Below, piece by piece: positions 23,170 to 24,837 of a stretch of 64,000 bases of DNA. The stretch spans positions 62,001-126,000 of the forward strand of contig CDROCS010003264.1 of NCBI GenBank assembly GCA_977020255.1. The letters run 5' to 3'. Origin of the DNA: Obrimoposthia wandeli (lineage: Eukaryota). The position numbers were made by a program, and so were the translations under genes. Positions within the stretch are counted from its first letter, which is position 1; every line of letters starts with the position of its first letter. The notes under the pieces are model-generated. The model did not search any database, had not been told where the DNA came from, and was given only the letters and a program-made list of their open reading frames with translations.

Positions 23170-23700
23170 TCAGTTGTCGCTGGTGAGGTCAATCGTTACT
23201 GTTGGCTGGTTTCGACTGTCCAAATAGAGCATGACCTGCTCCAGGGGCAGGTCTGGAAAGGACGGAATGTCCCCGTTGTATAGGAGCAGCTGCTGTCTCA
23301 GGGTCAGGTGTGGGCTTTCGATAAATATGTCGAAGTCCTGCCCGTTCAGCTCATGGCTCTCCATCCATAAGCGTCTGGCCTGTTGCCACGAACGGTTATC
23401 GCGGCTAGACCGCCATCGCTCGCGGATGCCCAATTTTGTGTTGCGACGGCGCGCGAGGCACACGGGGCACTGACAGTGCTCGCTATCAATGCAGCTGGTG
23501 GGTGAGTGGGTGCCCTTGGGTCGTCCACGGCATTGGAGCGTCTACTCTGAAAAGGGTGCCCGGCACATCGGGCATGTGATATGGCCGGGGGGTCGAGCCT
23601 TGGCCCACAAGTAGAGGCAGGACTCGTGGAATTTGTGTCGGCACCCGACAGGGGATGCCGACGCTGCCCAGATTTTCTCGAGGCAAATTGCACAAAGCAT
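23170..23700 (-). pseudogene. RING-H2 gene 3 (~176 codons, one in-frame TAG at 23544-23542): RING-H2 + CxCxxC module + C-terminal SIM-like VTIDLTSD
   Basis: Manual translation from ATG 23700: MLCAICLEKIWAASASPVGCRHKFHESCLYLWAKARPPGHITCPMCRAPFSE*TLQCRGRPKGTHSPTSCIDSEHCQCPVCLARRR... This is in frame with track ORF 23170-23463 (237 nt offset). Confidence 0.8.
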
Positions 23701-24047
23701 CTGCGCAATAATTACTCTTTAATTTGGGGTTCAATTTGGTTTTAATATTTATTTATGAATTTTAATATTTTAATTTCAATATTACAAGCTTAATATTTTA
23801 ATCCTACCGAATTCTGTTTTGATTTTAAGCATGTTTTTTCACATTCATACTAAGCATAAAAAATTGTCTTTTTTGAGTTTCAGTCTAATAATTACAATTT
23901 CAAATAAACAACATACATAAAAATGGTAATGGTCATTTTACAGTTTCACAAGATTATACAATTATGATTACAATTATGGTAACTAATTTATCGCGGTATG
24001 CGATACACAGGGGTAGTTCACGATGTCACGTTTTAAGTCACCTTCGG

Positions 24048-24353
24048 TTACTGCTGGCTGTTGGGCTGGCCTGTGCGTCGTTCCTCCACGCAGAACGAAC
24101 ACCAGCAGTCGCAGATGTTTTTCCAGCAGTGTACAATGGGTACCACTGCTTGGAAGCTGTCCCGGTTGTAGACATAGTGCACCGAGAAGGTTGCTCTGCA
24201 CATCGGGCAGTTTGGGTAGTCGAGGGGATTGTTGTTGTTGGCGATTGGGATCCACATCTCGAGGCATTCGACGTGGAACTGGTGGTCGCAGTTGTTGGGT
24301 TTGGTGTATAGGTCCACGATGTTCTCGTAGCAGATTGAACATTCTCCAGACAT
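24048..24353 (-). CDS. RING-H2 gene 1 (101 aa, intact) with a CWKNxxxCWCxxC tail
   Basis: CSIC..CDHQFHVEC..W..CPMC is C3H2C3; tail VHCWKNICDCWCSFCVEERR. Confidence 0.85.
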   Translation of the reverse strand: MSGECSICYENIVDLYTKPNNCDHQFHVECLEMWIPIANNNNPLDYPNCPMCRATFSVHYVYNRDSFQAVVPIVHCWKNICDCWCSFCVEERRTGQPNSQQ

Positions 24354-24413
24354 TGCTGTGAGAGGGTTGATGTTGAATTTGGTCTCGATTGAGGGTTGGT
24401 GGTTGTGTGATGT

Positions 24414-24712
24414 TTACACAAAAGTGGTCGGATTTTGTCGTTCTGACAGACAGTAGTAACACCAACATTCTCTCAAATTCTTCCAACAGAATACCACTTG
24501 TACATCTACATCCTCTTGGTTGGGTTCTATTCTGATTAACTTTGTGAATTATCTTCTGCATACAGGGCAACGAGGGTATGTCGGATAGGGAGTTTCTCCA
24601 TAGGTTCTGATCCATTTGATAAACATTCCTCGTGGTGTAAGTGATTGCAGGTATCGGGTCTTGTTCTTCGTTCGGTTAAATCTGCCAAACATATTGGGCA
24701 TTCTTCGGACAT
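24414..24712 (-). pseudogene. RING-H2 gene 2 (~99 aa; one 1-nt frameshift near 24620, one TAA at 24551-24549); not in the ORF track
   Basis: MSEECPICLADLTERRTRPDTCNHLHHEECL / KWIRTYGETPYPTYPRCPVCRR*FTKLIRIEPNQEDVDVQVVFCWKNLRECWCYYCLSER. Clear paralog of 24048-24353 along its whole length. Confidence 0.8.
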
Positions 24713-24837
24713 TCTAAATACATGATGACAATTAATTTCTACACGAGTTTTACATATTTCTACTTATTTGTACAATCGCTTTTAGATATTTCTACATATT
24801 TTTACACACTAATTTATCTACAACCTCCTCTGACTTA

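Follow-up and report, generated by a model that had tools for sequence, protein, structure and literature searches.

How three small genes that follow a multi-thousand-codon polyprotein come to be expressed is the question raised by a giant LTR element in a 64,000-nt stretch of the Obrimoposthia wandeli assembly (contig CDROCS010003264.1, positions 62,001 to 126,000; hereafter the window, with coordinates counted from its first letter). The window holds two copies of this element in opposite orientation, 91–92% alike across 19 kb. Along the polyprotein, Pfam domains run in the order gag zinc knuckle and mononegavirus-like fusion domain (one ORF), protease, BIR, RING, reverse transcriptase (RT), RNase H, integrase, and dual-specificity phosphatase, giving a PR-RT-RH-IN order with BIR/RING cargo. 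The zf-CCHC and Monjiviricetes_fusion matches both fall within the ORF at 57650–61183, with the fusion envelope in frame and flanked by gag and protease; a homologue search with the envelope piece found none. After the polyprotein stop, the only separate ORFs are three RING-H2 genes, which, standing behind so long a reading frame, need messages of their own. The coding features are as follows:

24838..40934, minus strand, broken giant polyprotein region (stop at 24840–24838; gag knuckle and fusion domain scanned in the second element)
24414..24712, minus strand, RING1 gene, 99 aa in 19 of 30 copies, frameshifted near 24615 in the window copy
24048..24353, minus strand, RING2 gene, 101 aa, open in the window copy and in 26 of 30 copies
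23170..23700, minus strand, RING3 gene, 176–179 aa in 17 of 30 copies, with a premature stop at 23544 in the window copy

The RING products are predicted E3 ubiquitin ligases. No close homologue of the RING2 protein emerged from a protein homologue search, and a comparison of features places it nearest to small viral RING proteins (0.91–0.94), which we treat as a lead only. Two ORFs of 554 and 214 aa, considered as further accessory genes, were rejected as broken ends of the polyprotein, and reading RING1 and RING2 as a single ORF was rejected on the RING1 stop at 24416, which is common to 19 of 30 copies. An overlapping alternative frame of 223–225 codons runs across RING1 and RING2 (23983–24701, minus strand) in five of six full sublineage-1 copies and may be a shadow frame.

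The element matches a Burro-like giant Ty3/gypsy retrotransposon, an assignment made against the published description of planarian Burro and not by sequence comparison. Its RT database matches are of the Ty3/gypsy type, and no named Burro element was among the database matches. From LTR to LTR it measures ~23–25 kb, or 26 kb with a 4-kb insert, and its family is very large (5353 and 21969 first-look candidates, which are not copy numbers). MATH, BCL2, and ankyrin motifs were absent from the 13 scanned ORF pieces. The phosphatase domain after the integrase (28100–28480, minus strand) is missing from the Burro domain list in the available excerpt of PMC6431247. Element 1 is a broken mosaic whose 5' part resembles a second sublineage and whose 3' part resembles the first, with LTRs of two different types; this junction (39600–44376 against 22900–39000) may reflect recombination or misassembly, and the element is nested in an older LTR at 44377. 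Between the two elements lies an intronless HMG-box ORF (50077–50517, plus strand). As to the host, multi-copy COX1 has AAA where Asn is conserved and AGR at Ser positions and thus reads like genetic code 9, which makes a flatworm likely; the assembly also contains bacterial contigs and the mitochondrial COX1 of a second animal.

The sequence-only reading had placed an acceptor-like context 0–2 nt before each RING ATG, and all three are where it put them:

24714..24737, minus strand, predicted acceptor 1, a TTAAT branch-like motif and TATTTAG, with an out-of-frame ATG at −11
24356..24378, minus strand, predicted acceptor 2, CCCTCTCACAG, in the context CTCTCACAG/CA ATG (AG ends at 24356, ATG at 24353)
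23701..23724, minus strand, predicted acceptor 3, TATTGCGCAG in the window copy, with GCGCAG/ATG (AG ends at 23701)

Before RING1 the context is TATTTAG/A ATG, its AG ending at 24714 and the ATG standing at 24712, whereas the RING3 ATG (23700–23698) follows its AG directly. In other sublineages acceptor 3 reads TTTTCTTRTGCAG, TTATCTTGTGCAG, and YTAAY...CATTCAYGCAG. Such adjacency is uncommon in the element: YAG lies 0–2 nt upstream of 42 of its 441 sense ATGs (9.5%), against all three RING starts. The chance of three out of three is about 1 in 1000 if the sites are independent, a figure that is overstated because the RING genes may be paralogues.

Loss of the adjacency in other copies had been named as grounds for abandoning the idea; instead, it is kept across four sublineages. 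YAG stands at 0–2 nt in 29 of 30 sublineage-1 copies at each RING site, although these copies are ~95% identical and on their own say little. It is kept at RING1, RING2, and RING3, respectively, in 20, 19, and 19 of 20 sublineage-2 loci (the miss being a locus cut by a contig end) and in 24, 22, and 15 of 25 loci of a distant set, while all five RING3-bearing loci among the 22 examined in sublineage 3 retain TGTGCAG. The distant loci share ~79% identity in RING1/2 and 59% in RING3 (25 loci), and seven of them, being near-identical, count as about one. One distant locus is without RING1/2 and, by our own reading of the alignment, six are without RING3, which brings the RING3 count to 15 of 19, with YAG absent from the other four. 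A CAG could also be retained as the Gln codon of an M-Q-M start, an explanation set aside since that start occurs only in 14 of 20 sublineage-2 copies.

In the distant RING3 copies, the preceding 100 nt align at only ~30–45%, partly through gap placement, and the CAG offset shifts between 1 (twelve copies) and 0 (three). CTAAC, TTAAC, or TTAAT nevertheless occurs 20–22 nt from the AG end in 15 of 17 of these sequences, in a window chosen after looking. A looser YTNA at 18–24 nt is present at all three RING sites compared with 8 of 47 decoy sites; acceptor 2 is without a canonical YTRAY. By eye, candidate myosin introns, from genes presumed to be the host's, have GTGAGA/GTAAGA donors and TGCAG/TTTAG/ACAG acceptors like those of the element. 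The persistence of YAG and branch spacing where the DNA upstream of RING3 has turned over, together with RING ORFs open in most copies, makes it very improbable that the adjacency is chance or a relic of gene capture, with the RING genes read by reinitiation, by internal entry, or not at all. That reading would draw on the 9.5% prior per site, on the generally conserved DNA around the RING1 and RING2 contexts, and on accessory ORFs of Drosophila MDG1, which are expressed without splicing (PMC11952523, excerpt).

Upstream conservation could have another cause, since each RING gene might possess its own internal promoter, the AG beside the ATG serving as an initiator or start context. The 30–60 nt before RING1 and RING2 are highly conserved, and in the distant set identity to the window is 93% over the 32 nt preceding RING1, compared with 79% over the RING1 coding sequence. 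TATA-like words also occur, namely, in sublineage 2, TATATAAAA at −44 relative to the RING1 start and, elsewhere, TATATAAG at ~−53 before RING3 in 7 of 17 distant sequences. However, the RING1 word is TATGTA, within a TGTAGAAAT repeat, in sublineage 1 and most distant copies; such words are not shared across sublineages, RING2 is without a TATA, and the fixed branch-point spacing would be left unexplained. Internal promoters would further leave out-of-frame ATGs inside the 5' UTR: one at −11 before RING1 in 28 of 30 sublineage-1, 20 of 20 sublineage-2, and 17 of 25 distant copies, and one at −7 before RING3 in 12 of 25 distant copies. We therefore consider internal promoters unlikely. Since out-of-frame ATGs are tolerated before RING1 and RING3, whereas the element's leader is purged of ATGs (see below), these stretches look as though they are removed before translation. 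Based on the conservation across sublineages, the branch-point spacing, and the tolerated upstream ATGs, the three RING-proximal sites are probably 3' splice sites.

Candidate partners for these acceptors lie in the LTRs, where donor-like sites had been proposed at 43325, 54469, 22048, and 44591 and are indeed present:

42390..44376, minus strand, 5' LTR of element 1, TG...CA, 1987 bp, with a conserved first 200 bp, a variable promoter and leader, and a conserved last 350 bp
43912..43919, minus strand, TATA box of this LTR, with a putative start site
43326..43890, minus strand, predicted non-coding first exon with a 29-bp satellite and no ATG
43320..43328, minus strand, predicted splice donor CTG/GTAAGC, GT at 43325
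42597..42602, minus strand, AATAAA ~215 nt before the LTR end and downstream of the donor, in the same place in all seven complete LTRs among those listed
42363..42381, minus strand, primer-binding site, complementary to the 3' end of host tRNA-Met(CAT)
21640..22899, minus strand, truncated 3' LTR of another type, donor-like TTG/GTGAGA at 22048
44377..45211, minus strand, older LTR, belonging to a third type and interrupted by element 1, with donor-like TAG/GTGAGA at 44591
53594..55404, plus strand, 5' LTR of element 2 (second sublineage), donor-like CTG/GTAAGA at 54469

The sequence-only reading had counted four LTRs with donors at the same place. Only two are full-length; the LTRs that begin at 22899 and 45211 have been truncated, with ~200 bp at 70–80% in common with the others. 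The architecture is shared, each donor lying 40–100 nt after the first satellite, but the positions differ, at 621–1051 from the LTR start. The host tRNA-Met gene sits in a tandem array with a 284-bp period. Within a conserved U3 core, GAAGGTCGTG equals 10 nt of the primer tRNA-Met (44220–44211, minus strand; 53748–53757, plus strand), and the motif AAAATCGATACGT occurs twice, just before the 3' LTR (22945, minus strand) and at the start of the conserved U5 block (42720, minus strand).

Comparison of 74 LTR hits, in which diversity was enriched by the choice of loci, sorted their promoter regions into 39 unrelated types, of which 38 were kept after one fragment was dropped and three duplicate window entries were removed. 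What the LTR types have in common is confined to the first 200 bp and the last 350 bp. The paired LTRs of a single element agree at ~97% and are bordered by 4-bp target duplications, and an assembly artefact behind the diversity was rejected on the matching LTRs and 4-bp target duplications of three of the four complete copies checked. That the LTR middles (promoter, leader, and satellites) are unrelated between copies whose internal regions are ~95% identical is possibly more surprising than splicing itself.

Against this turnover, 22 of 38 LTR types have G/GTRAG no more than 40 nt from the point at the leader end where GC-rich sequence gives way to AT-rich, compared with 1.8 expected by shuffling; of these 22, at least two, types 25 and 30, represent other sites. 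A donor site is present on the sense strand of 34 of 38 types versus 8 of 38 on the antisense strand. Among the 32 types with a TATA call, 28 have G/GTRAG, three AAG/GTATAA, and one T/GTAAGA, under donor rules set after looking and with six types left out. These counts are not independent, since copies and LTR types are of common ancestry. G/GTAAG also occurs upstream of the TATA box (44091, 43991, 44911, and 53879), so the hexamer by itself is no proof of a donor; the U3 hexamer that precedes a CACTT...AAGTG palindrome is probably a factor-binding site.

From TATA to donor, 14.3 kb hold 2 ATG versus 93 CAT; the counts are 8 versus 334 after the donor and 4 versus 187 in U5, compared with 65 versus 122 in U3, all inflated by satellites. 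Four of seven full leaders have no ATG between TATA and gag, and the other three have 1, 3, and 11. A leader of 2–3.5 kb is thus purged of ATGs, and because this holds after the donor too, the unspliced leader appears to be scanned, with gag reached without need for a splice. Before the gag ATG, an ATG-free open frame of 114–118 codons is found in four of five located copies (56604–56957, plus strand; 40935–41290, minus strand), one copy having an in-frame 12-nt deletion; this frame suggests a non-AUG-initiated N-terminal extension.

Taken together, we infer splicing of the RING messages from motifs, conservation, and ATG patterns, and we lean toward expression of all three genes by alternative cis-splicing from the LTR donor, spanning 18.6–19.6 kb. 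The non-coding, ATG-free first exon of the 5' LTR would be joined to one of the three acceptors, which lie 18.6, 19.0, and 19.6 kb downstream, with predicted introns of 18,612, 18,970, and 19,625 nt in window coordinates. Such a splice would make each RING ATG the first AUG of its own message, while the unspliced RNA would serve as genome and polyprotein message. The varying acceptor offsets would fit, the first exon being non-coding. The start of transcription, the use of the sites, and the pairing of donor with acceptors are putative steps. Of the original proposal that a short LTR exon is spliced ~19 kb to these acceptors, the acceptor half draws on conservation, branch-point spacing, and upstream ATGs, and the LTR donor as partner is supported indirectly, by its conservation and the ATG-free leader.

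Like its foamy virus counterpart (PMC3694450, excerpt), the donor precedes the LTR poly(A) signal, which suggests that it may also bind U1 and so inhibit polyadenylation within the 5' LTR. This could be its sole function, the acceptors then pairing with nearer donors. A conserved AAG/GTAAC, 6 nt beyond the RING2 stop, could pair with acceptor 3, and further weaker donors lie between TATA and gag. However, acceptors 1 and 2 have no local donor to explain them, a message spliced from any donor beyond the gag start would still carry upstream AUGs, and the donors between the primer-binding site and gag vary among sublineages, so we hold this alternative to be decidedly unlikely. The region after the RING2 stop (23975–24045, minus strand), where the donor-like site reads GTGAC in the window copy, also contains a small conserved hairpin, TATCGC-ATACC-GCGATA.

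Alternatively, the acceptors may be real but take a host spliced leader by trans-splicing, which would resolve the operon-like cluster in the genomic transcript. The COX1 code points to a flatworm host, flatworms trans-splice, and acceptors are common to cis and trans use (PMC12582326, excerpt); the spacers here measure 125, 60, and 347 nt, close to the 100-bp peak for operons in Macrostomum (PMC8629364, excerpt). The spacer after the polyprotein stop is TGTA-rich, which would also suit a resolved cluster. In 24 of the 25 distant loci, this spacer (24745–24835, minus strand) contains five to eight TGTA words per 110 nt, which resemble 3'-end or Pumilio-type elements. Reported flatworm leaders, however, end in ATG (PMC12582326 and PMC7346339, excerpts), a start that would fall out of frame wherever the offset is 1 or 2, as it is for two RING genes, and would not accommodate the 0/1 switch at RING3. 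This objection is weak, as the leader AUG is in frame in only 28% of Schistosoma trans-spliced messages (PMC9851317, excerpt). The acceptors are also not donorless, a conserved donor and an ATG-free exon lying upstream. The spliced-leader alternative, which the sequence-only reading had offered beside cis-splicing, is on these grounds disfavored and fairly unlikely.

Spliced products were also sought, and no junction was seen. Four sequencing runs on one sample, their kind unrecorded, resembled genomic DNA in behavior, and among their listed reads no joint or loose end fell at the acceptors, which is uninformative on splicing. No processed DNA copies were found: three exclusion patterns, which miss exon ends in AG and some others, gave 6, 5, and 2 matches, all 13 being mutated native contexts. 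The predicted junctions are exact (24713, 24355, and 23700) and cheaply testable. A literature search, with the primary Burro papers and supplements outside its reach, found no report of splicing in Burro-like elements and no description of how separate accessory ORFs in giant flatworm retrotransposons are expressed; splicing goes unmentioned in the excerpt of PMC8532177, and the mechanism may already be known in the primary Burro papers. Giant flatworm retrotransposons carry apoptosis and ubiquitin genes, and one such retrotransposon has been reported to aid stem-cell survival (excerpt of PMC13465017, citing the primary study). A broader and more doubtful possibility is that this Ty3/gypsy lineage is a modular complex virus, in which dozens of unrelated promoter-plus-leader cassettes are swapped within a fixed LTR frame, each ending at one obligatory donor. 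That donor would feed three alternatively spliced ubiquitin ligases over 19 kb, with the envelope kept within the polyprotein and splicing reserved for host-manipulating accessory genes, and its constancy would permit free promoter exchange. An invariant donor in otherwise unrelated LTR middles bears on how LTR promoters diversify.

Among known systems, HTLV-1/BLV and HIV join one 5' donor to several alternative acceptors just before small genes, although they belong to a different virus family, have introns of <10 kb, and encode unrelated regulatory proteins. Foamy virus accessory genes use an internal promoter. Among the sequence features of complex-retrovirus-like splicing, the element has a conserved donor upstream of the first coding AUG and several conserved acceptors before accessory genes, but its Ty3/gypsy-type RT and its env before pol set it outside the Retroviridae. 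In foamy viruses, which are Retroviridae, the major donor likewise sits within the LTR and ahead of the poly(A) signal, hence in both LTRs (PMC3694450, excerpt); here, the donor is 0.5–2 kb from that signal and the envelope is not a spliced gene. Insect errantiviruses are Ty3/gypsy elements that use a spliced subgenomic RNA to express a 3' ORF, with an exon that precedes gag contributing in some clades, but with one acceptor (env) and a coding upstream exon, as opposed to three acceptors, a non-coding exon, and varying offsets (PMC12992720, excerpt). Closest in content is planarian Burro/GYPSM1, which shares the giant polyprotein, the gag zinc knuckle, an in-frame mononegavirus-like fusion envelope that sits between gag and pol, BIR and RING domains, tandem repeats, accessory ORFs, and very high copy number, and for which the available excerpt describes no splicing (PMC6431247). 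Burro exceeds 30 kb compared with ~23–25 kb here and differs in the phosphatase after the integrase, the three separate 3' RING genes, and the MATH, BCL2, and ankyrin motifs not seen in our 13 scanned pieces (PMC6431247, excerpt). Judged from sequence, RING splicing would be a variation on a known mechanism, the splicing of 3' ORFs and accessory genes, and, if true, it would carry the multi-acceptor splicing of accessory genes beyond retroviruses, into a Ty3/gypsy element.
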